Source: a virus
Taxonomy: Duplodnaviria; Caudoviricetes
Strand: one strand, 5' to 3'
DNA length: 53,252 nucleotides
IMG/VR virus record: IMGVR_UViG_3300013132_000065
Location: 1 to 53,252 of that record
Part shown: piece after piece, positions 3,275 through 31,850 of the stretch
Layout: the number at the start of each line of letters is the position of its first letter
Numbering within the stretch: position 1 is the stretch's first letter
The notes under the pieces: model-generated
What the model saw: only the letters and a program-made list of their open reading frames with translations
Told to the model about the DNA's origin: nothing
The model's database searches: none
Translations under genes and position numbers: made by a program

Positions 3275-4072
3275 ATGGGACGTCCTAAAGGTAGCCGGAA
3301 TCGTAAAAGCGTAGTAGAGATGGATAACACCAAGATGTGTTTCAAGACATTCCAGCAAACCAAATCGCCGGCGAAGATGTTTGGTGATATGACCAACCTT
3401 GCTAAAATGGTTGCAACAGGTATTTCACCGTCATTGCTTGTAACGGGTATGCCTGGATTGGGTAAGACATATACTATTACCAATACGTTGCATGCAATGG
3501 GGTTGGAAGAGGGTATTGATTTTATTCATGTAAAGGGTCGTTCAACGGCCGCAGGATTGTTTATTACGCTTTTCGAGAATAGCGATAAGCTTATTATTTT
3601 TGATGATTGTGATAGCATCTTTAAAGATGCGGATGCCGTTAATTTGCTTAAAGGTGCGTTGGATAGTTACGAGCGCCGAGTAATTAGTTGGATGGCTGCA
3701 AAGCCGCTTAAGGATACCGACGGTGAACCAATGCCTAGGTCATTTGAATTCCGAGGCCGAGTTATTTTTATTAGCAACCTTCCAATTGCCAATATTGATA
3801 GTGCGATCCGAAGCCGAGCATTTGCGCAAGATATTACATTGACCGCAGATCAATTGATCCAGCGTATGACGGATCTCCTTCCAATGGTAGAGCAGCAAAT
3901 CAAAGATATGTCGATCAAGCAAGATGCATTGGAAGCACTCCGTGAAGCGCATATTAAATATGCCGGTGTAGAATTGAACTTCCGTAGCTTGATCAAAGCA
4001 ATCCGGATTCGGCAAATGGGATTTGATAACTGGAAAGAAATGGTTGCCGAACAAGTAATGGGTGTAGCGTAA
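3275..4072 (+). CDS. AAA+/P-loop ATPase
   Basis: Walker A GMPGLGKT, Walker B LIIFDDCD, VIFISN, AIRSR arginine finger; AT-hook-like N-terminus GRPKGSRN. Confidence 0.85.
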   Translation: MGRPKGSRNRKSVVEMDNTKMCFKTFQQTKSPAKMFGDMTNLAKMVATGISPSLLVTGMPGLGKTYTITNTLHAMGLEEGIDFIHVKGRSTAAGLFITLFENSDKLIIFDDCDSIFKDADAVNLLKGALDSYERRVISWMAAKPLKDTDGEPMPRSFEFRGRVIFISNLPIANIDSAIRSRAFAQDITLTADQLIQRMTDLLPMVEQQIKDMSIKQDALEALREAHIKYAGVELNFRSLIKAIRIRQMGFDNWKEMVAEQVMGVA

Positions 4073-4090
4073 CAAATAGTTACGGTTTTA

Positions 4091-4123
4091 TTAGGATTCG
4101 AAAGAATATTATCCTTATCTTTA
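4091..4123 (+). promoter_or_regulatory. Bacteroidota sigma70-type (early) promoter
   Basis: TTAGGATTCGAAAG...CCTTATCTTTA, repeat of the 3205 element. Confidence 0.65.
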
Positions 4124-4152
4124 TAAAAAAAGAAATAACCCAAATCAATACA

Positions 4153-4407
4153 ATGACAACCAAGAACTTCGATGTAATGGCCGACGGCCGGATCGCAGGA
4201 CCTAAAGATTATATGTCATGCCGCTTTGATACATTCATGGATCTGATCTATAATGGTCAGAGCGTGTTATATAAAGAGGCAATGCTGCGTAGTCCGGACT
4301 TTGAAACGGCAATTGCAGTATGCCTAGAGACCGATTACAATGCATGGAAGAACACCGCGCATCTAGCCAACCGCATGATGCATCCGGCGATCGGCACGGC
4401 TAGCTAA
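4153..4407 (+). CDS. hypothetical protein
   Basis: 84 aa ORF directly after a promoter motif. Confidence 0.7.
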   Translation: MTTKNFDVMADGRIAGPKDYMSCRFDTFMDLIYNGQSVLYKEAMLRSPDFETAIAVCLETDYNAWKNTAHLANRMMHPAIGTAS

Positions 4408-4564
4408 AAAACAATTAGCATAGCAATAGCGCACCATATATATAGCAAGAGCATTATATATACACATAAGCATAGTATATATACGCATATCACCCAGAAC
4501 CAAGGCATACTTATACATACCCTAGGCAAGCACCCCAAAAGCGGGCTAAAACACCCAAAAACCA

Positions 4565-4740
4565 CCCTATATAGGGGAGTATACCGGTTTACCTTAACAT
4601 ACCATGAGCTTCTGGTGCTCTGGGTGGCCTATTACCAATTTCTTTCGTGAACAACGCTTTTTGCCTATAGCCCCTGGTCTTTAAAGATCGAGGCATATGC
4701 CTCCACTACAATTATTGTAGTGCCCACTACACGTGTAGTG
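4565..4740. repeat. chain of palindromes in non-coding DNA
   Basis: CCCTATATAGGG 4565-4576, TCTTTAAAGA 4678-4687, GAGGCATATGCCTC 4690-4703, CACTACAAT-T-ATTGTAGTG 4704-4722, CACTACACGTGTAGTG 4725-4740. Confidence 0.85.
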
Positions 4741-4804
4741 CCATTACTCGAATCCGGCATGCATATTTAATATTAGCAACTAACAATGACAAGCAAACAT
4801 AATC

Positions 4805-5443
4805 ATGACTATAACACGTGCATATATACAACAGCTGGTAACTGAAGAATTAAATAAATACCAATTCAATCGTATCATGGAATCCAAGCCATACTCTGGT
4901 AGCAAGATCATTGTATTTGATCTAGATGATACCCTAGTTATTACTAGAGCTCGTATTATAGTAACTGACCCTAAAACCAATAAAAGATACGCCCTTACCC
5001 CGGAGGAATATAATACATATCAAGTTCAGCCCGATCATCAATTAGACTTCTCCGAGTTTAGATCTTTGAATATATTGAAAGCTGGCAAGCTTATAGACTA
5101 TTACCTTAAGATATTGCAAGAAGCATATCGTCGGGGTATTCCTGTTAGCATTGTTACTGCACGCGATAATCGCAATTTAATCTATCAATGGTTCAAGGAG
5201 CATATTGGATATCCTATTGCGCGTACGCTCATATATGCTGTAACCGATCCCGTACATAATTTCCATGGAACTATTGCAGATCGTAAAAAGATGGCGTTCC
5301 GTGAGTTAATTGATCGAGGCTATACCGATTTTCAATTTTACGATGATGATCCGGAAAATCTACGACTCGTTAAATCAATTGAATCGGACTTTCCAAACGT
5401 ACGCATTGCTGCCCGGAGGGCTTATAAGCAATACTCTCGCTGA
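4805..5443 (+). CDS. HAD-superfamily phosphatase
   Basis: Motif I IVFDLDDTLV, motif II IVTAR, conserved K, motif IV FYDDD; N-terminal LVTEEL leader. Confidence 0.8.
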   Translation: MTITRAYIQQLVTEELNKYQFNRIMESKPYSGSKIIVFDLDDTLVITRARIIVTDPKTNKRYALTPEEYNTYQVQPDHQLDFSEFRSLNILKAGKLIDYYLKILQEAYRRGIPVSIVTARDNRNLIYQWFKEHIGYPIARTLIYAVTDPVHNFHGTIADRKKMAFRELIDRGYTDFQFYDDDPENLRLVKSIESDFPNVRIAARRAYKQYSR

Positions 5444-5449
5444 TTATAA

Positions 5450-6202
5450 TTAACGCTGAGGCTGATATGCACCACCTAGGCCTCGCGAGGCTAATGCATC
5501 AGCTATCATGATAGCTTCACGACTTTGTGATCGTAGGGAGCGTGTACCGGGGCTAAGCCATGGCGAATCCACATGTATTTGGGTAACTGGCAAAGTTTGG
5601 TCTAGTATCCATGTTTCCTTTTCCTGATACCCGCCCGCCGCAGTTAAAAAATCCGGATTCATAAAAGCCAATGCTTTGACTTGCTTATAAGGAATAGTGA
5701 CAACAATGGCCCATCTGCCAGCTGGTAATCTACCCTGTGCAAAGTTCGCTGCTACCAACCAATCTAGCGATACTGATACAAAACCCGGGCTACGAGATTT
5801 AATGTGTTGTGATACGGGGCCTAATCGAAACCAATTGCCGGCGCTGACTTCCGTGATCTGGATCGCGGGATCTTGTATTAATTCCGCGCATTGTTCCACA
5901 GCTAAAGTCATGCCTCTATATACCCGATCGCTGTCAGCTAATCCCGGATCTAACACAGCTGGGAACTTTTGTTTTAAGGGCAATAATTGCTCGATAGCTG
6001 AGATATCAATCTGATCTTTTTCGCCATTCGTAAGGTAAGTATATAACTGCCACCAAAGCGCCTCTTCTTCCTCGGTATTCCTTTCCTTCATGCCGTCATA
6101 CACTTGCGCGATAAATCGATTATAACGGATGTGACGTTGGGGATTAGCCCATAAGAGATCGCCGTATTGGAATTCTCGTAATAATGTTTTCAATCGTATC
6201 AT
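5450..6202 (-). CDS. putative R-S-E ADP-ribosyltransferase, paralog 1 (inverted)
   Basis: MIRLKTLLRE leader; VYRG, FVSVS, QEKE; shares KFPxxLDP and NPxF with its paralogs. Confidence 0.7.
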   Translation of the reverse strand: MIRLKTLLREFQYGDLLWANPQRHIRYNRFIAQVYDGMKERNTEEEEALWWQLYTYLTNGEKDQIDISAIEQLLPLKQKFPAVLDPGLADSDRVYRGMTLAVEQCAELIQDPAIQITEVSAGNWFRLGPVSQHIKSRSPGFVSVSLDWLVAANFAQGRLPAGRWAIVVTIPYKQVKALAFMNPDFLTAAGGYQEKETWILDQTLPVTQIHVDSPWLSPGTRSLRSQSREAIMIADALASRGLGGAYQPQR

Positions 6203-6334
6203 ATACATAAATATATAGCAGCCGTAGATCTAGTGTGTCTTGTGTAAGGCCGTAGGCTTCCGAAGGCCGGGCCCATGGGGGGGTGAAATGCATAGACCAC
6301 ACATTATATTTTATTAATTAAGGAATATTTATTA

Positions 6335-6673
6335 ATGAATATAACTAGGAATCATTCAATGATCAATCAAAAAAATGGTAAGGATAAAATGTCACGGCCA
6401 TCGCGATCAAATCGAGCCGGACTAACTGAATCAGCTTTACGTGCTATAATCTGTGAAGAGTTGCGCCGTGTGATCGCGGAAAGACGGGTATATCGGTCCG
6501 CGGAATACGAAGAAATGCATAGCGCGATTGAAACGATTCTAGATAATCTACGCTTCCTCGAACCGCCTCATATAGTGCCCGCCCGCGATGCACGCGAAGC
6601 AGTCCGCGATGTGCAAAAGGCCTTGCAAGCATTGTCTGAATTGATCGATCGGTACGGCACTGAAGATAGATGA
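6335..6673 (+). CDS. hypothetical protein with IIxEE motif
   Basis: LTESALRAIICEELRR; ATATTTAT at 6325; start could be further downstream. Confidence 0.7.
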   Translation: MNITRNHSMINQKNGKDKMSRPSRSNRAGLTESALRAIICEELRRVIAERRVYRSAEYEEMHSAIETILDNLRFLEPPHIVPARDAREAVRDVQKALQALSELIDRYGTEDR

Positions 6674-7488
6674 TTCGATTACGTGACTTGCTCCTTGAGT
6701 TAGATTACGGTGACAAGCTATTTGCGGATGATTTGATCGACCCGAAACACCCTCGCGAAAAGGCTTGGGGACGATTTATCCAGCAAATATATCGACCGGA
6801 TTTTGAGCCCAACACTGGCGCGGAGCAGGAACTACTCGACCAATTGCAAGCATATATCGGCGTGGGCCACCGCAATGCGAAGCTTGCGAGTGCATTGCAG
6901 CAATTGCTACCACTGCGATCGCGATTCCCTCGTATATTAGATCCAACCGCGGCCAGCATCACGAGTGACGACGAAACGCCCATGCCATGGGCTGAGCCTT
7001 ATCCGGATCTTGCATGGCGCGGCACCTGGGCGCCGATGCCATGGGCAGCTAAGGTAATGGCTCAAAGCAAACATGTTCACAACGTAACCGTGTCCGATGA
7101 ATATTCGCTTCGTCATGTCATGTTTCGAGATGGGAGGGAAGTCGAGGCTACGGTTTTCGAGCGCCCGGGCGTGATTTATAAGTCATCAGGTGAGCGTATG
7201 ATTTCTTTTTCCGATCGGCCCGATGTCGCATTTAGATTCATGCGTGCACGCGCTAAGGATATATATAATCCAAGCAAACCGTCTGGCGTGCCAGTCGCGC
7301 TTGGCATTGCAAAAACGCACCCACGTTTAATCATGAATCCGGATGCTATGAATGCGTTAGGTAGCGATTTTGCGGGAGGTGAATCTGAAATGCTGTTGCT
7401 GACTAATGCGTTTACCCCGGATGTTGTTGTGTTTATAGATCCATATGGGCTTAAATACATAGATAACTATATAGATAACATCCAGTGA
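6670..7488 (+). CDS. putative R-S-E ADP-ribosyltransferase, paralog 2
   Basis: MIRLRDLLLE leader; EPNT, RFPRILDP, AWRG, MISFS, MNPD, GESE. Confidence 0.65.
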   Translation: MIRLRDLLLELDYGDKLFADDLIDPKHPREKAWGRFIQQIYRPDFEPNTGAEQELLDQLQAYIGVGHRNAKLASALQQLLPLRSRFPRILDPTAASITSDDETPMPWAEPYPDLAWRGTWAPMPWAAKVMAQSKHVHNVTVSDEYSLRHVMFRDGREVEATVFERPGVIYKSSGERMISFSDRPDVAFRFMRARAKDIYNPSKPSGVPVALGIAKTHPRLIMNPDAMNALGSDFAGGESEMLLLTNAFTPDVVVFIDPYGLKYIDNYIDNIQ

Positions 7489-7527
7489 GCAGCGTATATT
7501 TATATTAAAATTTAAGTAGAATTTATC

Positions 7528-7953
7528 ATGACCAGAAAACAACAAGCCATGTCAATGCTTCGTCGAATCATTCGCGAAGAAATTGATAAATTAGCGATGA
7601 GAGAATTCGAGATCAGGGAAGCTTCTCATGTAAATGAGGTTTCAGATTTTAACGACCCCGTTTTAGTTGCGTTTAGAGCAGCGCAGCTTCGCAGAAACCA
7701 GGATACCAAAAAAGCGCCGGCTTTAAAGCCAGCTGAAGCTAGGAAATTAAACTCACAGCTTGAAAAGATATATCGCGCGTTAAACGTACTTTATGTTGAT
7801 CGCAATAGAATCTTGAATGACATGGAACAAGAAGCTGAAATGGGCGGCGGTCCTATTGCCGATCGGTACAGTGATGACTTGGAAAAGCTAGAAGGTAAGA
7901 TAGCCAAACTCTTAACTCAACGCAAGGCAATAGAAATTAAATTAGCTCAGTGA
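7528..7953 (+). CDS. hypothetical coiled-coil protein with IIREE motif
   Basis: MLRRIIREEIDK; ATATTTAT at 7496. Confidence 0.75.
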   Translation: MTRKQQAMSMLRRIIREEIDKLAMREFEIREASHVNEVSDFNDPVLVAFRAAQLRRNQDTKKAPALKPAEARKLNSQLEKIYRALNVLYVDRNRILNDMEQEAEMGGGPIADRYSDDLEKLEGKIAKLLTQRKAIEIKLAQ

Positions 7954-7975
7954 AATAACTAAAAAAAGAAATTTT

Positions 7976-8377
7976 ATGAATCATAGCCAAAACAAATCTG
8001 CCAAGCAAAAACTCGAAGAAATAATAACTAAAATTATACGTGAAGAGCTCGCGGAGGGTGGATGGAGTAAAAGCGCGTTGGCTGCATTTTCACGAAAAAC
8101 CAAGCCGGGTAGATACTTTATTACCACATCTAAAGACGCCAAACCCGGCTGGGCAACCTTCCCGACCATGGCCGGTTTTAACGCTTTTATACGGGACGAG
8201 CTCCGTCGAGGGAATGATTTCGCTAGAGGCGCGGAAGTCATTAACATACATGACAAACAAAAAGGTGATCGGGCAGTACTGCAATATTTTTGGTCGCCGC
8301 GCACAGGTGTAGACTATATTCGGCCGACAGTACCTAATGGTAAGCCAGGTGAAGTTAATCCAAAATATGTTTTGTAA
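7976..8377 (+). CDS. hypothetical protein with IIREE motif
   Basis: LEEIITKIIREELAE. Confidence 0.75.
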   Translation: MNHSQNKSAKQKLEEIITKIIREELAEGGWSKSALAAFSRKTKPGRYFITTSKDAKPGWATFPTMAGFNAFIRDELRRGNDFARGAEVINIHDKQKGDRAVLQYFWSPRTGVDYIRPTVPNGKPGEVNPKYVL

Positions 8378-8408
8378 CGAGAATTAATAACATTGATCAA
8401 TTTATGAT

Positions 8409-9242
8409 ATGAGTGTGATACGATTGCGAAAATTATTACAAGAATTTGAAGTTGGAAATTTACTATGGGCTGACTCATCAGATACTAGGCGTTCAGGGTA
8501 TTTTCAGAAATTTCTTAATACAGTTTATGGTGATGAGATAGAGCCTAATACTCCGGAGGAAGCGGCTGCATTAGAACGAATAGAATCTTTTATATTAAAT
8601 AATGATATTAAGACGCCTTCCGGTGTCCGTACATTAAATGAGCCGAAAAAATTTATAAAAGATTTATTAAAACTCAAGCCAAAATTTCCGGCAATGCTTG
8701 ACCCATTATATAATAATCCGAAGTTGAGTAACGATGCTTACATATATCGCGGAATGACAACTGAGTTATCTATAATAATTCACACTATTCAGTATGCTAA
8801 ATCGTTCGAAAGGATTCGGGCACAAAACGATAACCATTATATAAGTGTTAAACATCCCAAAGTAAGTATAAAATCACGTGCAAAAGGATTTATGAGTTTC
8901 ACCACAGGCTCTCAGAAGCTCTCCGGACTCGCCGTAGCTGATATATTCACAGGGCAAAACTTATGGTCAGCGTCCGGTGCAGGCCGTTGGGGAGTTATTA
9001 TTGGAATACGGTATGGAGATATTGCAGATAAGGCATTATTAAATCCGGAGTTTGTTGAAGCTATTGGCGGTTGGGGCGAATCTGAAATATGGTTATTAGA
9101 AGGAAAAATTGTACCTGATGTATTGTATATACGAGATCCATTCATATGGTATGGCACCGACAGTCGCGCGACTGTACCTAATGAAATAAAAAATGCCTTG
9201 AAGGCAAATCCTAACTTTCAACATATGACAGATGTAGTGTAA
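8409..9242 (+). CDS. putative R-S-E ADP-ribosyltransferase, paralog 3
   Basis: IRLRKLLQE leader; EPNTPEE, KFPAMLDP, IYRG, FMSFT, LNPEF, GESEIW. Confidence 0.7.
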   Translation: MSVIRLRKLLQEFEVGNLLWADSSDTRRSGYFQKFLNTVYGDEIEPNTPEEAAALERIESFILNNDIKTPSGVRTLNEPKKFIKDLLKLKPKFPAMLDPLYNNPKLSNDAYIYRGMTTELSIIIHTIQYAKSFERIRAQNDNHYISVKHPKVSIKSRAKGFMSFTTGSQKLSGLAVADIFTGQNLWSASGAGRWGVIIGIRYGDIADKALLNPEFVEAIGGWGESEIWLLEGKIVPDVLYIRDPFIWYGTDSRATVPNEIKNALKANPNFQHMTDVV

Positions 9243-9275
9243 TTGCAATAATTTTACTTAAACACTTCATTACAT

Positions 9276-9283
9276 ATATTTAT
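9276..9283 (+). promoter_or_regulatory. putative phage late promoter ATATTTAT (representative copy)
   Basis: Same 8-mer shortly before starts at 6325, 7496, 10096, 11532, 14991, 17510, 20279, 20513, 23291, 23791, 25629, 29851, 31403, 41663, 49971, and on the minus strand at 6207-6214. Confidence 0.6.
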
Positions 9284-9289
9284 GTATAT

Positions 9290-10066
9290 ATGATACGACT
9301 ACGTCAATTATTACAAGAATTTGAAGTTGGAAAGCATCTATGGGCTGATGAAGATATATATAAATCGGCTCGTTCAAAACAAGCAAAATTCCTTCAAGCA
9401 CTATACCATGGTGCATGGGAACCTAATACTCCGGAAGAGCTAGCGGCCTGGCGTGAGATATATTACTACGTAATGACGAGTAAAAAGAGCCCGAACTTTA
9501 TAAAGATCTTAGACGATCTACTCGCTCTTAAGTCAAAATTTCCTAAAATACTTGATCCAGAATTATCACCGAAAACTAAGCTTTATCGTGGAATGACTTT
9601 AGACGCGGAGCGTATAGTTGAGTTGTTATATGCTAGCAATTCAGTAACTAAAGCGACGGGCTGGCAAAATTTTGATGACGTTCTCGGAGGCACTGTTATA
9701 CGAATTGCGATTGATCGCCGCTTCATCAGGTCACGTAGCGCGAAATTTTTATCAATGTCTACTGAATATACAGTTGCTAAAAATTTTGCCAGGTGGCCTA
9801 TGACACGTGCCGGTATGATGGACGGTTCTAGATGGCCTCTTATTGCGGAAATAAATTATAGTGATATCGAGGCCTTAGCTTTAATGAATCCAAAATTCAT
9901 GAATACTTTTTCTGTGTTAGACGAAGAGGAAATTTGGGTAGTTGCTGACGCGGTACCTATTACAGCTTTATATATAACTGATCCTAGATCAATTGATGCT
10001 CCCACGGAATACAATGAGGCTCAGCGGATGATCGCGAATGCATTAAATCGCAAAAATCCGCATTAA
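9290..10066 (+). CDS. putative R-S-E ADP-ribosyltransferase, paralog 4
   Basis: MIRLRQLLQE leader; EPNTPEE, KFPKILDP, LYRG, FLSMSTEYTVAKNF, MNPKF, DEEEIW. Confidence 0.72.
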   Translation: MIRLRQLLQEFEVGKHLWADEDIYKSARSKQAKFLQALYHGAWEPNTPEELAAWREIYYYVMTSKKSPNFIKILDDLLALKSKFPKILDPELSPKTKLYRGMTLDAERIVELLYASNSVTKATGWQNFDDVLGGTVIRIAIDRRFIRSRSAKFLSMSTEYTVAKNFARWPMTRAGMMDGSRWPLIAEINYSDIEALALMNPKFMNTFSVLDEEEIWVVADAVPITALYITDPRSIDAPTEYNEAQRMIANALNRKNPH

Positions 10067-10124
10067 TCATTAACAACCCGTTTTTTATTGTACATATATT
10101 TATACTAAATAACTAGGAATTGTT

Positions 10125-10475
10125 ATGAAACAGTATAAGTCGAGACTCTTACGTGAGTATATTTCGCGAGAAATTCGTACTCAATTAAAAGAAAATGATA
10201 GCAAGAATTTCGCTTCGGATAGTCAGTCTGATTTAGATATTGGCCATGTCGATGATGAGCCGGGTATGATAAAAGCTGACTTATATCGAATTGCTAAATA
10301 TGCAGTAGAATTATATAAATTAGTATCTCATTTAGAAGAAACGGGTAAAGAGGTTGACTTTCCGCATTGGTGGCAAGCTGATATCATTGAAGCTAAGGAT
10401 CGTATGATCAATGCTAAACACTATGTCCATGGCGAGCTGAATATGCCAGGATTTGATAAAATGTTAGGGCTATGA
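10125..10475 (+). CDS. hypothetical phage protein, possibly head-associated
   Basis: LLREYISREIRTQLKE leader; DDEPGMIK...FPHWWQADI...AKHYVHGE; ATATTTAT at 10096. Confidence 0.7.
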   Translation: MKQYKSRLLREYISREIRTQLKENDSKNFASDSQSDLDIGHVDDEPGMIKADLYRIAKYAVELYKLVSHLEETGKEVDFPHWWQADIIEAKDRMINAKHYVHGELNMPGFDKMLGL

Positions 10476-10783
10476 AAGTTATATATAGTATAGTTGCATG
10501 TATATGCTTATTAGTTAGTTGCACATCATCATCACATATGCAATGTGATGAAGTATATTCATATGATTATAATTGCCCAGAACGCGATTATTATAATTTT
10601 AATGTATACCGCGCGTATTATCCAAATACCGAGACAGTATACTTTGTGCCCTATTATGTGCCAAACACACACGAGCCGAAATGTAATGATCATGCAACGC
10701 CTAGTAGGGAAATTATAACGGGGCGCCGGCCATCTTTATCATCTCACCGTACTAATAAACGCCCTGAGACAAATGAACAATGA
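10472..10783 (+). CDS. small lipoprotein
   Basis: MKVIYSIVACICLLVSC signal peptide and lipobox. Confidence 0.65.
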   Translation: MKVIYSIVACICLLVSCTSSSHMQCDEVYSYDYNCPERDYYNFNVYRAYYPNTETVYFVPYYVPNTHEPKCNDHATPSREIITGRRPSLSSHRTNKRPETNEQ

Positions 10784-11532
10784 GGCTATTACATTTATTG
10801 CATGAGTTTGAATATGGTGAAAATTTATTTGCCGATCCTAGTCATTATAGCAATGTACAGACTACATCTGACTTAAATATCATTGGCTATCGTAACTATG
10901 CAGATATAGAAACTGATACTGAGGATGAGACGCGCGCGTTAGAATTACTCGATGTATTTTATTCTGGTGATTTTGTCAACTTAGATGAAACCGCATTGTA
11001 TAAACTCATCGCACCACTAAAAAAACTTAAATCAAAATTTCCAAAAATATTAGACCCACGTACTAGTCCCGGTATTGGGCAAATGGTGTACCGCGGTGCA
11101 ACTATATCTTTAGATTTAGTTAAAGATATGCCGTATACGGTCGCTGGCAGCAATATTATACTTGAAGTGCCTAAAAATTTTAAAGTACGGCCGCAATCTG
11201 GACGGCCTATACACTCTTTTAGTATTAAACGGTATATGGCAGTTAATTATGCATTAAATCAAACATTAATGTCAGTAGAAAATCCAAGCCGTGTACCAGC
11301 TATAATTTGCGTAGATGTAAATGATCCTAATTTATTATTTTCAACTCGTTTTTCAGAGCTACATAGTATATATAGAGAAGAAGAAGAAGTATTTTATGCT
11401 AACTATGATATTACAGTAAACGAGTTAATTCTAAAGTCAGCAATTATAGAAGATATATATAAAGAACATGCTAATAGCAGTAATCATGTTGTACGCAGTG
11501 TATATACTAAATGGTATAATGCTATCAATTAA
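10780..11532 (+). CDS. putative R-S-E ADP-ribosyltransferase, paralog 5
   Basis: MRLLHLLHEFEYG leader; KFPKILDP, VYRG, IHSFS, REEEEVF. Confidence 0.68.
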   Translation: MRLLHLLHEFEYGENLFADPSHYSNVQTTSDLNIIGYRNYADIETDTEDETRALELLDVFYSGDFVNLDETALYKLIAPLKKLKSKFPKILDPRTSPGIGQMVYRGATISLDLVKDMPYTVAGSNIILEVPKNFKVRPQSGRPIHSFSIKRYMAVNYALNQTLMSVENPSRVPAIICVDVNDPNLLFSTRFSELHSIYREEEEVFYANYDITVNELILKSAIIEDIYKEHANSSNHVVRSVYTKWYNAIN

Positions 11533-11543
11533 TATTTATTAAT

Positions 11544-13280
11544 ATGATAAGTTTAATTCAACTATTACGAGAAATACGTTTATTTGAAAAAAATAAAACG
11601 GTAGATTTTTTCCGAAAAAATCCTAATCTATTAAAACAGTTTACTGTGCCAGACCCAGGAAACAAGAATATTAACGCTGCTGATTATTACCCAAGCCCGA
11701 CGGGGAAGGAGTCGAGACTCAGCCGAGTTGCTTTAGAAATGCTAGAAAAAGCATTTCCACATAAGTTCAATGACCGACTTTTCAAAACGCTATGGGAATA
11801 CGATTATTTGGTTAAAACAATTATCAAAGCCCCAACATATCAAGAGTTGCTAGATAAACACTTAGATGTTTTACCGACAAATGAAAAGGGGGAACCATGG
11901 ATGGATTATATGGATCATGAATTCATGTCCACAAATTACAATAAAATACGGCGAATAGCTCGAGCAGCAGTTGCCAAATCGGCAGGTTTGAGTCATATAG
12001 GTAGAAAGCGTTATGTCAAAGCTATGTATAAATTAGGGCTAGATCCGAATGACGTCGAGGCCGCAATGTCATGGGTAGGTTATTACACAGGCGGCAGTTA
12101 TCGTAAACTTCCTAAGGAGATATTTGAAACACTACAGCAATTATCCGTTGATCCTAGTCGTTTACCAAAATATATATATCGTGGACTTTTTTATGATGGT
12201 GCTAAGATTAAAGATCAAGAAAAGTTTTTAAGTAAATGGAAAGAAGGCTCAATGCCTAAAGAAGCATTACGTAAAGCTACTAGTTTTTCTGGAGATAAAG
12301 GCACTGCAATTAACTTTATGGTGAACCAAGACAAAGTTAAAGATGCTAAATCGGGATATCATATCCTACTAAAATGGAAAGTTCGCCCAGAGGCTGTTGT
12401 CGCTGATTTACGAAACTTACCTGTCGATACAAGGTTTTGGAACCAACATGAATTCATAGTACATCCGGATGTTAAAGACTATGTCGTAGATAAACTTATA
12501 CCATATAAAGATTCTACCGATTATGCCTCCTATAGCGATACACCATATGTTAAATTTCAAGACGCGACAAAAGGCGGATTTGGAGCGTACGGGCTGGATA
12601 AGCCTGATACACTGAAAACATTTTTATTATCACCGTATGATAAATACAGTACTAACGAAAAAATTGCATATAAGCAATTATACAATATGACTGTACAGGA
12701 AGTACAGCAAGAATACACAATGTTTCGTAATTATTATGAAGATGCTTTTCAGAAGATAAAAAATGCAGTACTGCCAGTATATGTAGTTAGCGACGCGCTA
12801 GTTTTTAGCGGCGGTGGAAAAGATTTCACGTTTAGCAAAGTTCATACCGGATCTACGCGAAATACTCTAGAATTTCAAATATTTGTACGTTTAAGTTATT
12901 ATTCCGCAGATAACAGTACAGAACTATTCGGGCCTGAGGTAACTGCAATGTTGCAACGCAATTATATAGATTCGGGTAAATTTAAATCAATGCGTGATGT
13001 ATTTAATGCATTAGAGAATAGTATGAAACAACCAACTGGTTATAGTTCACTTACATTACGCCCAGGCGGCGGTTATTATAGCATGAAATTTGATTTAGAA
13101 CTTCCAAAATCATTTATACTAGATGATATACCAGGTGACCGTTACAACGCCGCCGGCATATCAATTTGGGAAGATATCATGAAGATTTTTGACGGTAAAA
13201 TGATAGCTGATCGATGCCGAGAAATAGTTTCTAGAAACCTTAAAAGACTTCCACCGACAGTAAAAATTTCAGTAAAATGA
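11544..13280 (+). CDS. large multidomain ADP-ribosyltransferase-like protein (QxE type)
   Basis: MISLIQLLRE leader; YYTGGSY, YIYRG, ATSFSGDKGTAINF, NQHEFIV; about 250 aa C-terminal extension. Confidence 0.7.
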   Translation: MISLIQLLREIRLFEKNKTVDFFRKNPNLLKQFTVPDPGNKNINAADYYPSPTGKESRLSRVALEMLEKAFPHKFNDRLFKTLWEYDYLVKTIIKAPTYQELLDKHLDVLPTNEKGEPWMDYMDHEFMSTNYNKIRRIARAAVAKSAGLSHIGRKRYVKAMYKLGLDPNDVEAAMSWVGYYTGGSYRKLPKEIFETLQQLSVDPSRLPKYIYRGLFYDGAKIKDQEKFLSKWKEGSMPKEALRKATSFSGDKGTAINFMVNQDKVKDAKSGYHILLKWKVRPEAVVADLRNLPVDTRFWNQHEFIVHPDVKDYVVDKLIPYKDSTDYASYSDTPYVKFQDATKGGFGAYGLDKPDTLKTFLLSPYDKYSTNEKIAYKQLYNMTVQEVQQEYTMFRNYYEDAFQKIKNAVLPVYVVSDALVFSGGGKDFTFSKVHTGSTRNTLEFQIFVRLSYYSADNSTELFGPEVTAMLQRNYIDSGKFKSMRDVFNALENSMKQPTGYSSLTLRPGGGYYSMKFDLELPKSFILDDIPGDRYNAAGISIWEDIMKIFDGKMIADRCREIVSRNLKRLPPTVKISVK

Positions 13281-13729
13281 TTAAGCTAAAGTTGTTATTA
13301 GAAAATACATATTCATCATGGGTACGGCCGTCAATTGACTCATTAAAGCAAGAATTTCGCGTTGAACATGAACTTAAAGGCCATTCTTGGTTTGCAGATG
13401 AAACAGAATTTCTTGAAGCAGCGCGCCGCGCAAAAGCCATAACTATAACGCCGGCAATTGATAGAAAAATTGATTATCGTAGTGGCACAAAAACATATGA
13501 TCAATTAGTTAGATTGCTACAAGGCTATAAGTCTTGGGGTAAATATCGCAGTGAAGAAAAATTGCAAAACATGTATGCTCGACTACGCGACAATTTAGAC
13601 ATGGATATGCCAATCGTATTAAAGTTTCCTAATGGCAGTATGCGCGTGTTCGGCGGCAATACTCGCATGGACATAGCATTTCAGTTAGGTATCAATCCCA
13701 AAGTATTAATGATTGAAGTTCCTTCATAA
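13277..13729 (+). CDS. ParB/sulfiredoxin-like domain protein
   Basis: MIKLKLLLE leader; PIVLK...RVFGGNTRM resembles the ParB/Srx GxxR motif. Confidence 0.6.
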   Translation: MIKLKLLLENTYSSWVRPSIDSLKQEFRVEHELKGHSWFADETEFLEAARRAKAITITPAIDRKIDYRSGTKTYDQLVRLLQGYKSWGKYRSEEKLQNMYARLRDNLDMDMPIVLKFPNGSMRVFGGNTRMDIAFQLGINPKVLMIEVPS

Positions 13730-13769
13730 TTTTTTTTGAATATCGGTAAATTATTTATATAATACTGAT

Positions 13770-13970
13770 ATGTTCGAGTTTATCGCATTATATTTTTTAA
13801 TTGGAATATTGGCTACAATTTGTTTTGAATTGGCAATAAATCAATTTGAAATTGATATAATTACTAATTCTGACAGACTGTTTGCAATTATCTTATGGCC
13901 GCTGTGGGCGTTAATATTCATAGTCTCATTCGTTACAACGGTTATAACAAATTTTACAAAAAAAAGCTGA
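13770..13970 (+). CDS. small membrane protein
   Basis: Two hydrophobic segments, ILWPLW motif. Confidence 0.65.
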   Translation: MFEFIALYFLIGILATICFELAINQFEIDIITNSDRLFAIILWPLWALIFIVSFVTTVITNFTKKS

Positions 13971-13977
13971 TAAAATA

Positions 13978-14009
13978 TTTGTCTTTAGTATACAATGTTC
14001 TTATCTTTA
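13978..14009 (+). promoter_or_regulatory. Bacteroidota sigma70-type promoter
   Basis: TTTG-N20-TATCTTTA. Confidence 0.7.
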
Positions 14010-16372: not shown

Positions 16373-17506
16373 ATGAAAAAAGTATTACTGTTACTATTGC
16401 TAAATATGTTTGCATTTTTTTTGGTAGCACAAGAAGAATGTGGCACTACTACATCTAAAATTGAGTATAATAAAGCTAGCCGACATGCTAAAAGTATGGC
16501 CATGGCTAGATCATCTGGTACTGTACAACTTAAAGAAATTCCTATTGTTTTTCATATTTTTTATTCTGAGTCAATAGCCAATTCGTATGTTCCTCGCGAG
16601 GCCGTGGTTGAGGCATTTTATGACATAAATAGAAATTTTATAGGAACAAAATTTAGATTTCGGTTAGTTGATATTAAATATCAAAACTTAGCTGAATTTG
16701 CGTGGCATAATGATTTCTTAAACGGTAGTACTAATTTACCTAATAAAAATCATGGCAGAATGCATGATTTAGCTAATAGTACTTATTTAGACCCCAATTC
16801 TCACTTAAATATTTATATTTGCCCAAAATTTAGTACAGCCGGGCTTAAAGGGTTTTCATTTACTACTCCATATGCCCCAGTTGTAGGGCAAGGATTAAAA
16901 CCTGCTGACGGCGTTTGGATTAGAACTGATGTATTTGGCGTTAATCTTCCATATTTAGCTCAGTACAATACATTAAACAAAATAGTCGTTCATGAGATAG
17001 GCCATTATTTGGGACTATTTCATACATTTCAAGGCAGTGCCGGGTGTGATCCAGATGTCTTACCTTTAGATTGTGCAACTACAGGCGATCTAGTATGTGA
17101 CACGCCTCCTATAAAATCTTCGGTTATAGCAAATCACTGCAATCCTAGATGTCCTGACAATTGGACGCCTGGGATGCCATGGGAATCTTATACCTATGAT
17201 AACTTTATGGATTATTTAGCCGATAATTGTAGATATAGTTTTACTGCTGGCCAGATTGATCGAATGCACCAGCATGTTATACAACAACGTCCCGATGTTT
17301 ATCAAACTATAACTGTACAACAGCAAGTTGATTTAGATAGGAACTATAGTATAGGTTCATCCGATATGTTATTATTGTTATCTTGTATAAATCAACCTAT
17401 AGAATCTAAAGATTGCTATTTATGTGACTTTGATTTTAATAAAGTAGTAGGCGTATCCGACCTTCAACTTTTACTTTCCTTTATGGGAACTACTTACCCA
17501 AAGTAA
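16373..17506 (+). CDS. secreted M43 (pappalysin/ulilysin-type) zinc metalloprotease with dockerin-like domain
   Basis: Signal peptide, ECG propeptide Cys, IPIVFHI, HEIGHYLGLFHTF, Met-turn NFMDY, FTAGQIDRM; two Dx(D/N)x(D/N) loops. Confidence 0.85.
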   Translation: MKKVLLLLLLNMFAFFLVAQEECGTTTSKIEYNKASRHAKSMAMARSSGTVQLKEIPIVFHIFYSESIANSYVPREAVVEAFYDINRNFIGTKFRFRLVDIKYQNLAEFAWHNDFLNGSTNLPNKNHGRMHDLANSTYLDPNSHLNIYICPKFSTAGLKGFSFTTPYAPVVGQGLKPADGVWIRTDVFGVNLPYLAQYNTLNKIVVHEIGHYLGLFHTFQGSAGCDPDVLPLDCATTGDLVCDTPPIKSSVIANHCNPRCPDNWTPGMPWESYTYDNFMDYLADNCRYSFTAGQIDRMHQHVIQQRPDVYQTITVQQQVDLDRNYSIGSSDMLLLLSCINQPIESKDCYLCDFDFNKVVGVSDLQLLLSFMGTTYPK

Positions 17507-17542: not shown

Positions 17543-18901
17543 ATGAAACAGTTTATCATTATACTAGGATTTTTATCCTTTACGTTAAGTTCCGTAGCAC
17601 AAGAACCTATGAGTTGTGCTATGTTAGGTGATACAAAAAATGTATTGCCAATGGGATTCTTAAAAAACAAAAGTAATCGTAGTAATACTGCCAAAACGAT
17701 TCCGGTAGTAGTTCATATAGTTTATACTGATGCTATAGAAAATACATATGTCCCTGTTGAGGCTATCCAACCTGCTATAGATCAATTAAATGTTGACTTC
17801 GAAGGAACTAATATATTATTTGAACTAGTAGGTTATGATTATACAGATTTATCTACCTATGTTTGGCATGATGCATATGTAAGTGGGCAGGTATGTTTTC
17901 CTACATACCAAAACCAAGCTACCATGTTAGCTAATGACGTGGCATGGGACATTTCAGAATATTGTAACATATACGTTATACCTAAAATGTGCTCTACAAT
18001 ATTAGGCTATGCATATGTAGGATATGGGCCAAATAATGCTGATGACGGTGTTTGGGTACTCACTAAAACTTTTGGTATTGGCGAATGGCCCCACCTGAAT
18101 CCCGCATATAACGAAAATGAAACCTTAACTCATGAGTTAGGACACTACTGCGGTTTATTTCATACATTCAATTTAAACCCAGGCACATGCGGTGCACAAG
18201 ACCCAGATATCCCTTGTGAATACGAAGGAGATTATGTTTGTGATACTCCTCCTACTAAACCTAGTGCTGGTTGTCCCGGTACTACTGGTTATCACTGTCC
18301 TATAACCAATTATGATGGCGGTGTTTGGTTTAATGCTCGTAATCATATGGATTATGGGGGCCAATATTGCAGAGATGAATTCACACCGGGCCAAATAGAT
18401 AGAATGCATGCTATGCTTGAATATCAAAGATATGAATTGTATAGCGATGATTCCGTAATACCATTCTGTCCCGGAGATTTTAATGGCGATGGGAACATAG
18501 GTACGGCTGATTTATTAGTAATATTATCAAACTACGGTTGTATAGGATGTGGTCCTTCACAAGGGGATGCTACTTTAGACTATGTAGTAGGTGTAGCTGA
18601 TATTAATTGGGTACTAGCCAATTGGGGTGAAATTTGCGGTGATGGTATAGGAATGATAGAAGGGGAAAATATTTATTTACCTCAACTACCATACGTTCCT
18701 CAAAAGCCGAAACAATCAATTCCGTTTAAGACGTTAGCAGCGTTACTAGTTCAAGAACCTAAGCCAATTCTAGAAATAAACTATTATGATATCATTGGGC
18801 GAAATATTAATCTGTCAGAATTAGTACAAACACGTGGCATATATGTCGTTGAAATTATTTTTGAAGATGGTTCACGGGCTGTGTTAAAAACGTATAACTA
18901 A
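17543..18901 (+). CDS. secreted M43 zinc metalloprotease with dockerin-like domain and T9SS-CTD-like tail
   Basis: Signal peptide, IPVVVHI, HELGHYCGLFHTF, NHMDY, CPGDFNGDGNIGTADLL, C-terminal YYDIIGR...GIYVVEI. Confidence 0.85.
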   Translation: MKQFIIILGFLSFTLSSVAQEPMSCAMLGDTKNVLPMGFLKNKSNRSNTAKTIPVVVHIVYTDAIENTYVPVEAIQPAIDQLNVDFEGTNILFELVGYDYTDLSTYVWHDAYVSGQVCFPTYQNQATMLANDVAWDISEYCNIYVIPKMCSTILGYAYVGYGPNNADDGVWVLTKTFGIGEWPHLNPAYNENETLTHELGHYCGLFHTFNLNPGTCGAQDPDIPCEYEGDYVCDTPPTKPSAGCPGTTGYHCPITNYDGGVWFNARNHMDYGGQYCRDEFTPGQIDRMHAMLEYQRYELYSDDSVIPFCPGDFNGDGNIGTADLLVILSNYGCIGCGPSQGDATLDYVVGVADINWVLANWGEICGDGIGMIEGENIYLPQLPYVPQKPKQSIPFKTLAALLVQEPKPILEINYYDIIGRNINLSELVQTRGIYVVEIIFEDGSRAVLKTYN

Positions 18902-23807: not shown

Positions 23808-24306
23808 GGTTGATACTGCGGGTCGGCCTTATTATAAATTATTTTTTTAACCATCTAAGGAGGTAAACAATGAGTAGACATCCACTACATGCTTTCGATC
23901 TCTTAGTAAGAGATATGTTTAATGCAAATTCTGAATTTGCATCCGCGTTTCAAACAAAAGTACATCATCCCGTCGATATCCGAGAAACTGATTCCGGATT
24001 GCTTATTGAAATCGCAGTAGTCGGCGCTGACCGAGATGATATTGAGCTAATAGCCCAAGGCGATACAATTAGAGTTGCATATCGTAAAGATAGTCGCGAT
24101 GAAGCTGATTTTATTCAGCGTGGTATTGCAAAACGTAATTTTGATATTGGCTGGCGCTTAGCTAGTAAATTTAATGTTGAGAAGACTTCGGCTTCTCTAG
24201 ACAAGGGACTTCTTTCAATTGAAGTTCCATATAAAAAAGAAGAAGCAACTTTTAAAGTTACAATTCACTAATTAGTTACAACCCACGGCCGACCCGCAAA
24301 TCAGCC
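23808..24306 (+). repeat. inverted repeat bracketing the Hsp20 gene
   Basis: TGCGGGTCGGCC 23817-23828 and GGCCGACCCGCA 24287-24298, extended by GGTTGAT/ATCAGCC. Confidence 0.85.
23870..24271 (+). CDS. small heat-shock protein (Hsp20/alpha-crystallin)
   Basis: HPVDIRET, IEIAVVG, QRGIAKRNF, ASLDKGLLSIEVP; AAGGAGGT upstream. Confidence 0.9.
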   Translation: MSRHPLHAFDLLVRDMFNANSEFASAFQTKVHHPVDIRETDSGLLIEIAVVGADRDDIELIAQGDTIRVAYRKDSRDEADFIQRGIAKRNFDIGWRLASKFNVEKTSASLDKGLLSIEVPYKKEEATFKVTIH

Positions 24307-31424: not shown

Positions 31425-31850
31425 ATGAAAACCGAATCATTTCTAAATACACTACGTAAAATTATCCGAGAAGAAGTACGTAATGCTGTACGACAAGAAT
31501 TGAATGAGGCTCTTAACACAAAAAAGCCTTATAAAGAAGTTATTAACCATGGCGTAAATTTACAGCGCGAAGCAACAAAGCCAGCTGCTAGAAAACAATA
31601 CGTTAAAAACGAAATGTTAAATAATATTCTAAATGAAACATCGACTATCAATGATGGCGGATGGGACACATTAGAATTTAAATCAGAACTAGCTCAGGCA
31701 TATGGCATGAATTCTACAAATATAATTCAAGATATGTCTGGCAATGCATTTGATGTTAATGATTTAAAGAAAACTGACGCCGGCGCCGCTGTGGCAAATG
31801 CACTTACTAGAGACTATTCGTCATTAATGAAAGCTATCAATAAAAAATAA
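31425..31850 (+). CDS. hypothetical protein with IIREE motif
   Basis: LRKIIREEVRNAVRQELNE; ATATTTAT at 31403. Confidence 0.75.
   Translation: MKTESFLNTLRKIIREEVRNAVRQELNEALNTKKPYKEVINHGVNLQREATKPAARKQYVKNEMLNNILNETSTINDGGWDTLEFKSELAQAYGMNSTNIIQDMSGNAFDVNDLKKTDAGAAVANALTRDYSSLMKAINKK

Follow-up and report, generated by a model that had tools for sequence, protein, structure and literature searches.

The twelve genes at positions 5450-13729 of the viral record IMGVR_UViG_3300013132_000065 appear, on the balance of the evidence, to form an effector locus in which six genes encode ADP-ribosyltransferases (ARTs) of the R-S-E clade. Our favoured reading, to which we assign a probability of roughly 0.55, is that the locus supplies head-packaged, injected effectors that would carry a capsid-targeting propeptide like that of phage T4. 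The window, meaning the whole stretch of DNA analysed, corresponds to one entire IMG/VR viral record (53,252 bases), estimated by CheckV to cover 28% of a genome; phage genes on it encode an amidase, a baseplate wedge protein, a primase and an endonuclease, and its source is a large (~190 kb), uncultured T4-like myovirus. A sequence-only reading of the window had proposed an array of six diverged ART-like genes, and the six open reading frames (ORFs) are indeed present where it placed them, with all of the motif strings that it quoted found in their translations. What is new here is a short N-terminal leader common to ARTs resembling the T4 Mod enzymes and to unrelated neighbouring proteins. 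Because the leader is shared with such neighbours, the reading shifts from a family of ARTs to a locus of effectors that are probably head-packaged.

A leader peptide shared by ARTs and unrelated neighbours

The first ten residues of five ART paralogs, of the larger sixth ART-encoding ORF (ORF6) and of a 150-residue protein (gene starting at 13277) follow the pattern M-I-[RKS]-L-x-x-L-L-x-E. Across our list of 52 genes, this leader heads 7 of the 12 locus genes and 0 of the 40 other window genes. The true start of ART paralog 1 is probably at 6202, giving the N-terminus MIRLKTLLRE, and that of ART paralog 3 is probably the GTG at 8415; with these two starts, all of these proteins acquire a common N-terminus. 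The leader codons differ synonymously among the genes, and the leader is therefore conserved as a peptide. Positions L8 and E10 are invariant in a 33-row alignment of the ART family (the 5 window ORFs plus 28 of 42 relatives), and the leader N-termini listed have L4 and L/I7. An AlphaFold2 model of ART paralog 4 gives residues 1-10 a predicted local distance difference test score (pLDDT) of 54 and the next block a score of 92.

For comparison we used 22 related IMG/VR loci (352 kb; labels L0xx), taken with 10-kb flanks, together with fuller related records (labels G00x). A strict regular expression for the leader matched 34 ORFs in 11 of the 22 loci, comprising 16 ARTs and 18 non-ARTs, and matched 0 in reversed sequence; in the fuller records, leader ORFs number 9 in G002 (7 of them contiguous) and 4 in G004. 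With 13 residues trimmed off, BLAST sorts the 52 distinct leader ORFs into 17 clusters. The leader sequence changes with the phage that carries it: two ARTs, a ParB-like protein and four other ORFs of G001 start with MK[YH][IL]K.[YF]E.F..E instead. Two adjacent ORFs of the Microcystis phage Mel-JY01 (PP395634 60276-60926 and 60923-61105) bear the leader MIKLKSLL[QK]E and cluster with a leader ORF of L016/G001. A search of the literature for the leader strings found none.

The genes of the locus, with lengths in amino acids (aa), E values for the family hidden Markov model (HMM) and G+C fraction (GC) where noted, are as follows, together with one ORF from elsewhere in the window; type-2 denotes a second N-terminal motif described below.

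5450-6208, minus strand: ART paralog 1 (VYRG/FVSVS/EKE; family HMM E 4e-66; GC 0.456), the sole minus-strand gene of the window
6335-6673, plus strand: small ORF of 112 aa with type-2 N-terminal motif ..IICEEL.., its stop overlapping the start of ART paralog 2; homolog in L011
6670-7488, plus strand: ART paralog 2 (AWRG/ISFS/ESE; HMM E 1e-55; GC 0.495); ortholog at L011 1081-1851
7528-7953, plus strand: small ORF of 141 aa with type-2 N-terminal motif ..RRIIREEI..
7976-8377, plus strand: small ORF of 133 aa with type-2 N-terminal motif ..KIIREEL..
8409-9242, plus strand: ART paralog 3 (IYRG/MSFT/ESE; HMM E 8e-63)
9290-10066, plus strand: ART paralog 4 (LYRG/LSMS/EEE), the modelled protein
9587-9589, 9752-9754, 9923-9925 and 9929-9931, plus strand: proposed catalytic codons R100, S155, E212 and E214, respectively, of ART paralog 4
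10125-10475, plus strand: small ORF of 116 aa with type-2-like N-terminal motif ..RLLREYISREI..; homolog in L011
10472-10783, plus strand: ORF of 103 aa, the one gene of the locus that has neither the leader nor the type-2 motif; homologs after long ART-fusion genes in L008 and L019
10780-11532, plus strand: ART paralog 5 (VYRG/HSFS/EEE; HMM E 3e-55); ortholog at L011 6832-7590
11544-13280, plus strand: ORF6, 578 aa (IYRG/TSFS/QHE; leader MISLIQLLRE), made up of ~150 aa of N-terminal region, a predicted ART domain (R213, S247, Q301-x-E303) and ~260 aa of C-terminal region
12042-12506, plus strand: predicted ART domain of ORF6 (residues 167-321), from the profile alignment to the ART family
13277-13729, plus strand: 150-aa protein (leader MIKLKLLLE) with an invariant GNTRMD motif
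31425-31850, plus strand: ORF outside the locus with type-2 motif ..RKIIREEV.., just upstream of the baseplate gene cluster

The type-2 motif, h-h-[RK]-E-E-h, was sought within the first 45 residues and lies at residues 8-40; it occurs in 4 of the 12 locus genes and 1 of the 40 others. N-termini resembling it flank the prohead protease gene in G004 (3686-4000 and 2181-2732) and in G002 (101483-101872), and the motif may be a second kind of head-core tag.

In 5 of the 22 related loci, the gene that immediately follows an ART gene encodes a homolog of the 150-residue protein. This protein is probably ParB/sulfiredoxin (Srx)-like: in the ESM Atlas it scores 0.94 on features to a cluster in which 63% of members have ParB_N, and its structure reaches template-modelling (TM) scores of 0.45-0.50 to ParB/sulfiredoxin clusters. 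A search of PDB sequences with this protein gave no meaningful match, and Pfam, PHROGs and NCBIfam gave no relevant one. Read by eye in translation, the 103-residue ORF at 10472-10783 starts with what resembles a lipoprotein signal peptide: a hydrophobic stretch and then a Cys.

Leader ORFs of the related phages have some further peculiarities. One at 10392-11360 of L028 (G002), 322 aa long, contains a second, internal leader copy that starts at a Val (GTG) codon, so that either two genes are read as one or two leader-tagged genes are fused. This protein, another from L028 (G002; 6492-7310) and two from L040 (G001; 4466-4864 and 5797-6765) contain [FY]H[GFA][TG] ... Y[FW]S strings. Two leader proteins of this type have sub-threshold Pfam matches, to ART-PolyVal (E 0.018) and to Tpt1/KptA (E 0.023); the leader proteins with these strings may belong to the H-Y-E clade of ARTs, in which case the loci would be rich in NAD+-using enzymes. 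In addition, the ORF immediately upstream of the major capsid gene, at the scaffold position, begins with M-K-D-L-L-K-E-A-I-A-D-A-K in L033 (G002; 3515-4393), and its counterpart in L043 (G004; 1048-2076) has this string after an internal Met. In both, the string echoes the end of the leader, as T4 gp22 (MLKEQLIAE) echoes the T4 capsid targeting sequence (CTS).

The ART family and its invariant residues

The five paralogs can be aligned end to end at 21-36% identity, with R98, G99, S145, E196 and E198 among the invariant columns, and all of them contain the motifs ExxxGxxL[WF]A, Ex[ND]TxxE and L[KR]x[KR]FPxxLDP, as the sequence-only reading had stated. At E<=1e-3, the family HMM finds exactly these five ORFs in the 53-kb window. 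A word-indexed search with a five-sequence profile returned the 42 relatives mentioned above, all unnamed and with no Pfam domains, and an exhaustive profile search with the 33-row alignment returned 602 representative proteins at E<=1e-3, 241 at E<=1e-10 and 98 at E<=1e-30. Multidomain members of the family reach 1,612 residues, and one long member is fused to a 5'-nucleotidase domain (NT5C, E 1e-3). For a broader view of conservation, the 5 window ORFs were aligned with 115 listed relatives (120 rows; long fusions and some fragments left out). At a mean column identity of 11%, the sole invariant columns of this alignment are R100, S155, E212 and E214 (numbering of the 9290 protein, which is also used below). 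This invariance of just the four proposed catalytic positions is the strongest single piece of internal evidence.

Relationship to the T4 Mod enzymes

The sequences of T4 modA, modB and alt were taken from the annotated T4 record. Matches by hhalign to single T4 sequences were weak (probabilities of 18% for ModB and 9% for ModA), with the R and S motifs in register. A usable result came only from a Mod alignment, which comprised ModA, ModB and 6 ModB relatives, all belonging to PF26816, and has R73, G74, S99, A107, F110, E171 and E173 as invariant residues. The 120-row family alignment matches it with a probability of 79% and an E value of 1.6e-5 over 136 columns (18% identity over aligned columns). 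Residues paired in the match are YRG with R73-G74, S155 with S99, the A and F at +8 and +11 with A107 and F110, and ExE with E171-x-E173 (ModB). As controls, reversed alignments gave probabilities of at most 0.3%, and 30 column shuffles reached a maximum score of 17.5 versus 40.1 for the real pair. A study of ModB reports that the R73A variant is catalytically inactive, and that ModA and ModB have the R-S-EXE motif of arginine-specific ARTs (bioRxiv 10.1101/2021.06.04.446905).

The AlphaFold2 model of ART paralog 4 (overall pLDDT 87.3; predicted TM score 0.84) comprises helical residues 11-95 and an alpha/beta core of residues 97-230. Within the modelled core, R100 lies in strand 97-105, S155 lies in strand 154-157, which is followed by helix 160-173, and E212 and E214 are located at the start of a late strand (214-217). 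When the model was compared with predicted viral structures in BFVD using Foldseek, 7 of 318 matches had E<=1e-3 and 7 of the top 50 were named ARTs; two of the seven at this threshold are an 'RNA polymerase-ADP-ribosyltransferase' from a Vibrio phage and a protein of 1,390 residues with a head-morphogenesis domain. Among named ESM Atlas clusters, the top two by features were EspN/DUF4765 (0.90), followed by NarE, DRAT, Enterotoxin_a/Scabin, Pertussis_S1 and ADPrib_exo_Tox (0.86-0.88), and by structure the query-normalised TM scores to NAD:arginine ART clusters were 0.53-0.56; Atlas scores are leads by the tool's own standards.

The proposal of the sequence-only reading that all six ORFs have ART-type R-S-[E/Q]xE domains is thus upheld by profile matches (E 1.6e-5 and, for ORF6 as described next, 3e-6), by the viral fold search and by the ESM Atlas, with the T4 Mod enzymes as the closest characterised relatives. 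With all evidence taken together, the ART assignment is very probably correct, and at the level of sequence it is solid.

The sixth ORF as a distant ART

The family HMM misses ORF6 at E<=1e-3 and, with filters off, aligns only its YRG...SFS...A..F stretch at 9.7 bits. ORF6 has a family of its own, for which 43 search matches were obtained and 30 were aligned with the window protein (31 sequences). Its invariant residues are Y212, R213, G214, S247, A255, F258, Q301 and E303, and the distances from S to A and from S to F equal those in the ART and Mod families. In a profile-profile comparison, the ORF6 family matches the ART family with a probability of 88% and an E value of 3e-6 over 143 columns, placing R and S in register and QxE on ExE; 30 column shuffles reach a maximum score of 19.8 versus 51.9 for the real match. 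The corresponding comparison between the ORF6 and Mod families gives a probability of 13% only. Judged by these alignments, ORF6 is a larger protein with an embedded, distant ART domain (approximately residues 167-321) having QxE. In C3-like enzymes, QxE goes with non-arginine acceptors.

A possible capsid-targeting role for the leader

We read the leader as a CTS because it is ten residues long and has conserved positions 4, 7, 8 and 10, as in the T4 CTS. The T4 internal proteins (IPs) are a diverse set with the CTS alone in common (PMC3012670); T4 propeptides have 10-20 residues, gp21 always cuts after Glu, and Alt is cut at ITE-6 and LTE-619 (PMC5694885); and the first 10 residues of IPIII suffice for incorporation, positions 4 and 7 serving targeting, and 8 and 10 processing, and an Asp at position 10 stopping processing while leaving targeting intact (PMC9026906). 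In the T4 record, IPII and IPIII start with M-K-T-Y-Q-E-F-I-A-E, which the core of the G001 leader variant, Y-E-Q-F-L-N-E, resembles.

Under the proposed mechanism, the leader would direct its protein to the core of the prohead and then be removed after the Glu by a prohead protease of the gp21 type (S77); in the manner of T4 Alt, the mature enzyme would be injected along with the DNA. Each ART would then bind NAD+ in a cleft lined by its invariant Arg, Ser and [E/Q]xE and pass ADP-ribose to host macromolecules; R-S-ExE in five of the locus ARTs is the signature of arginine-specific mono-ADP-ribosylation, and the larger ORF6 has R-S-QxE. The sequences themselves show the homology to the Mod enzymes, the invariant catalytic residues, a portable leader that varies with the phage and an S77 protease in relatives, whereas catalysis, packaging, cleavage and injection are steps that we infer for this locus; the packaging mechanism is plausible.

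Head genes of related phages fit this scheme in several respects. A gp21-type protease (Peptidase_S77) scores above the Pfam cut-off in 3 of 4 searchable related records, an example being the one at G002 100872-101483. In G001, the portal gene (phrog_213, E 5e-72) is followed by an 86-aa leader ORF and another leader ORF, and these by the genes for the head maturation protease (phrog_207, E 2e-38) and the major head protein (phrog_138, E 5e-42). This is the portal-to-capsid order of T4, 20-67-68-21-23, with the two leader ORFs at the place of the core genes 67 and 68. Moreover, the capsid proteins of G002 and G004 have ..VTE and ..VKE at the place in the alignment where T4 gp23 has its maturation site (..LTE65); the gp23 propeptide has 65 residues (PMC9026906). 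A wider version of the proposal, which we hold tentatively and at slightly under even odds, is that the leader and variants such as MKYIKxYExFLxE serve as a portable tag for capsid targeting and cleavage in T4-like phages with S77 proteases, throughout a broad lineage most of which is uncultured. The tag would mark a hypervariable 'injectome' locus dominated by NAD+-using enzymes, with up to six Mod-like ARTs per phage, possibly H-Y-E-type ARTs, and the ParB/Srx-like protein.

Points against the reading and rival explanations

A number of results weigh against this reading, some of them bearing on the enzymes and others on the packaging. On the enzyme side, Pfam, PHROGs and NCBIfam give no relevant match for any of the six ORFs; at E<=1, Pfam yields a single unrelated DUF (E 0.12) for the five paralogs and ORF6, with neither PF26816 (Mod) nor PF03496 (ADPrib_exo_Tox) matched. 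When 120 family members were compared with Pfam, 1 matched SidE_mART (E 7e-4) and no other ART family appeared among 25 of 32 families listed; 10 long fusion members gave no ART family. Comparison of the family with the single sequence of T4 Alt by hhalign returned a probability of 0.2% (E 0.35). Searches of PDB sequences found only 2kxi_A (E 0.79), which we take to be NarE, with the 120-sequence profile, and nothing with the 5-sequence profile. Foldseek searches of the PDB gave 0 of 232 matches at E<=1e-3 for the full model (cholera toxin A1 at rank 3, E 0.05, probability 0.38) and 0 of 211 for a domain-only model of pLDDT 85.2 (pertussis toxin S1 at rank 1, E 0.031, probability 0.54). The combination of AlphaFold and Foldseek that had been suggested as a check gave a divided answer: among predicted viral structures, 7 matches reach E<=1e-3 and Alt-type ARTs are among the hits, and in the PDB no match reaches that threshold, although ART toxins rank third and first. 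That no curated family model and no PDB fold search is significant would suit proteins that are not enzymes at all, namely structural internal proteins with an ART or ART-like fold in which R, S and E are kept for folding. We consider this highly improbable, given that exactly the four catalytic positions are invariant among 120 sequences at 11% mean identity, that R, S, Q and E are likewise invariant in the ORF6 family, and that the Mod profile match stands far above its shuffled controls. An ART fold with other chemistry is also improbable, albeit less so: the proteins could be NAD+ glycohydrolases that drain or intercept NAD+-derived defence signals, nucleic-acid modifiers, or enzymes that attach NAD-capped RNA to proteins, as ModB does. 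ModB itself RNAylates proteins (bioRxiv 10.1101/2021.06.04.446905), and the QxE of ORF6 in place of ExE, the nucleotide-handling ParB/Srx-like protein as a conserved neighbour and the NT5C fusion in one long family member point the same way. Set against these are the full R-S-ExE in 5 of the 6 proteins, an arginine-specific signature as given in the same ModB paper, and the fact that no result points specifically to NADase activity or to nucleic-acid targets.

On the packaging side, neither head genes nor a protease were found on the window, so that the packaging link rests on the relatives. The introduction of one survey has ModA and ModB acting later in infection and does not name them among the head-packaged proteins of T4 (PMC9503650). 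The association of the leader and type-2 motif with the locus has a combined Fisher p of 2e-9, in which both regular expressions were derived from the same window. Furthermore, the ART module is internal in 26 of 184 family proteins. The strict leader heads only 2 of these 26 (by eye, the G001 type heads 3 more), and a leader-like '..L.L.E-G.YG' stretch immediately precedes many of the internal modules; the ART domain may for this reason include part of the leader in its structure, or a protease may cut at such junctions. These findings favour the most serious of the rivals, in which active Mod-like ARTs are made inside the infected cell and are not packaged, the decapeptide being a structural helix, a translation or stability signal, or a junction for cassette recombination. 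It has in its favour, besides the fusions and the lack of head genes on the window, that the closest characterised relatives are ModA and ModB rather than Alt, and that the mosaic GC and at least three lineages of the array fit cassette exchange. Nevertheless, we judge it unlikely, since the leader is kept as a peptide through synonymous codons and not as DNA, heads 17 sequence-distinct families, co-varies with the phage, is also found in its G001 form on two ORFs between portal and protease, and has its conserved positions where the T4 CTS has its functional ones.

A candidate sign of late expression must also be struck from the case for packaging. The upstream motif ATATTTAT is not enriched in number, with 21 window sites versus 18.4 expected, and is promoter-like in its placement: all 21 sites point the same way as the local gene, 16 of them fall between genes, and 14 are no more than 100 nucleotides upstream of a start. 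Since it is also found upstream of two M43 peptidase genes and an Hsp20 gene, it says nothing on expression timing, and its use as a sign of late expression was rejected.

ATATTTAT, example sites: 6325, 7496, 9276, 10096, 11532, 17510, 29851, 31403, 41663 and 49971

A different motif, TTATCTTTA, is found within 40 nucleotides upstream of an AAA-ATPase gene (3275), an ORF at 4153 and an endonuclease gene (24574).

Copy number and history of the array

The clustered, multi-copy character of the family, put forward from the window sequence together with a comparison of copy number, extends to related phages in which arrays recur. The family HMM finds 1-4 copies in each of the 22 loci (4 in L011, 3 in L003, 2 in three loci and 1 in 17 loci), counts that are bounded by the 10-kb flanks; with 5 copies plus ORF6, the window has the most among the loci compared. 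A tree was built from 30 ARTs (4 long fusions left out and 1 duplicate dropped). In this tree, 6670 pairs with L011_1081 (support 100/99) and 10780 pairs with L011_6832 (100/100), both members of the latter pair being directly upstream of an ORF6 gene, and 5450, 8409 and 9290 form one clade with two L003 copies (100/99). Genes from 5450 to 8377 have a GC of 0.42-0.50 versus 0.37 for the window, and this left part of the array looks to have been acquired from a higher-GC phage. The array is old and mosaic, because at least three well-supported lineages have orthologs elsewhere and because of the GC of its left part; it bears no mark of a recent duplication burst. The description of the family as expanded and diversifying therefore stands as regards its multiple copies, but not as a recent burst, given copies from at least three old lineages with orthologs in another phage and a left part of foreign-looking GC.

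Comparison with known systems

Among characterised proteins, T4 ModA and ModB (PF26816, RSE clade) share with the window ARTs the ordered R-G ... S-x-[ST] ... A..F ... E-x-E residues with identical S-to-A (+8) and S-to-F (+11) spacing, homology extending into the helix before the Arg (E-x-x-T-x-x-E), a size of 200-280 aa and an arrangement as adjacent paralogs in a phage genome. They differ in that the window ARTs have an insertion of ~30 residues between the R and S motifs and six copies rather than two, and in that ModA and ModB both lack the N-terminal leader. T4 Alt is likewise an ART of the R-S-E clade, predicted Alt-type structures are named matches in the viral fold search, and the proposed route would be shared, namely a propeptide ending in h-x-E, a cut by the prohead protease and injection (PMC5694885 and PMC9026906). 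Alt differs in being a single-copy protein of 682 aa with a six-residue leader (ITE-6) unlike that of the window, and it has no detectable sequence match. T4 IPI, IPII and IPIII resemble the locus in having a leader of ~10 residues ending in Glu on otherwise unrelated, fast-evolving proteins from variable loci (PMC3012670). The window leader, MIRLxxLLxE, is different, and its cargo consists mostly of enzymes (ARTs, ParB-like) rather than small basic proteins; window-type phages are also only distantly T4-like, and packaging here is a proposal from genes.

Two further systems offer partial parallels. The ejection proteins gp53 and gp54 of SPN3US are diverged paralogs with an identical N-terminal propeptide containing protease motifs (PMC5694885), but they come from another phage group with an S80-type protease, have much longer propeptides and are not ARTs. 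ARTs fused to MuF or within polyvalent proteins (Iyer et al. 2017, 2022) have predicted head delivery (PMC9503650), and long multidomain members occur in the present family too, whereas the window ARTs are separate small genes with a short leader. The same survey covers 21,191 viral proteomes and counts the RSE-clade families Mod and Alt/VIP2 as two of the most frequent kinds of viral ART, with ~44% of phage ARTs in contexts suggesting head packaging, mostly MuF fusions, polyvalent proteins or positions beside head genes (PMC9503650). Given these frequencies, a Mod-like ART in a large myovirus is in itself the expected kind of thing. Our literature search found no description of this ART family or of five- to six-copy arrays (the words 'paralog' and 'expansion' are absent from the accessible text of PMC9503650), and no CTS-like short leader common to Mod-like ARTs and many families outside the T-even phages.

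In terms of significance, a large phage ART family that is unnamed in curated libraries is now anchored to the experimentally studied T4 Mod enzymes, and six such enzymes in one phage are three times the Mod pair of T4. The capsid-targeting mechanism of T4, described so far mostly in T-even phages, may also be at work in distant relatives from the environment, one of them a cultured cyanophage. In that case, the leader would load a changeable set of enzymes for injection, the ART paralogs would amount to a multi-target first strike delivered with the DNA, and the tag alone could reveal injected effectors in metagenomic phage sequence. If the ARTs are ordinary intracellular Mod-like enzymes, the result would be a useful but expected annotation.

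The source phage and other genes of the window

The nearest isolate to the source phage is a Microcystis cyanophage. For two conserved window proteins, the best relative is phage Mel-JY01 (190,001 bp; 52.5% and 42.0% identity), followed by an uncultured 484-kb phage and then by Flavobacterium 'immuto' phages (39.8%); a megablast search of window positions 5000-14000 against annotated phages found no near-identical DNA. The ART family profile has no match in Mel-JY01 or in Flavobacterium phage immuto_3-5A, and an HMM scan of the whole Mel-JY01 record with the ART, ORF6, 150-residue protein and Mod profiles gave nothing below E 0.05. The sequence-only reading had spoken of Bacteroidota phages, an attribution not borne out by a nearest isolate from Microcystis, with Flavobacterium phages next, and by a family found in neither Mel-JY01 nor the one Flavobacterium record searched. 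A tblastn search of annotated phages with ART paralog 4 returned just 2 Vibrio phage records (E 0.03, 20% of the query), with no annotated feature at the matching positions. No publications on Mel-JY01 were found in the literature search.

Elsewhere in the window, two adjacent paralogs of the zinc metallopeptidase family Peptidase_M43, an unusual phage cargo, are encoded at 16373-17506 and 17543-18901 (E 1e-12 and 1e-17), and a small heat-shock protein of the Hsp20/alpha-crystallin family is encoded at 23870-24271 (Pfam E 1e-8; phrog_432 E 9e-16).

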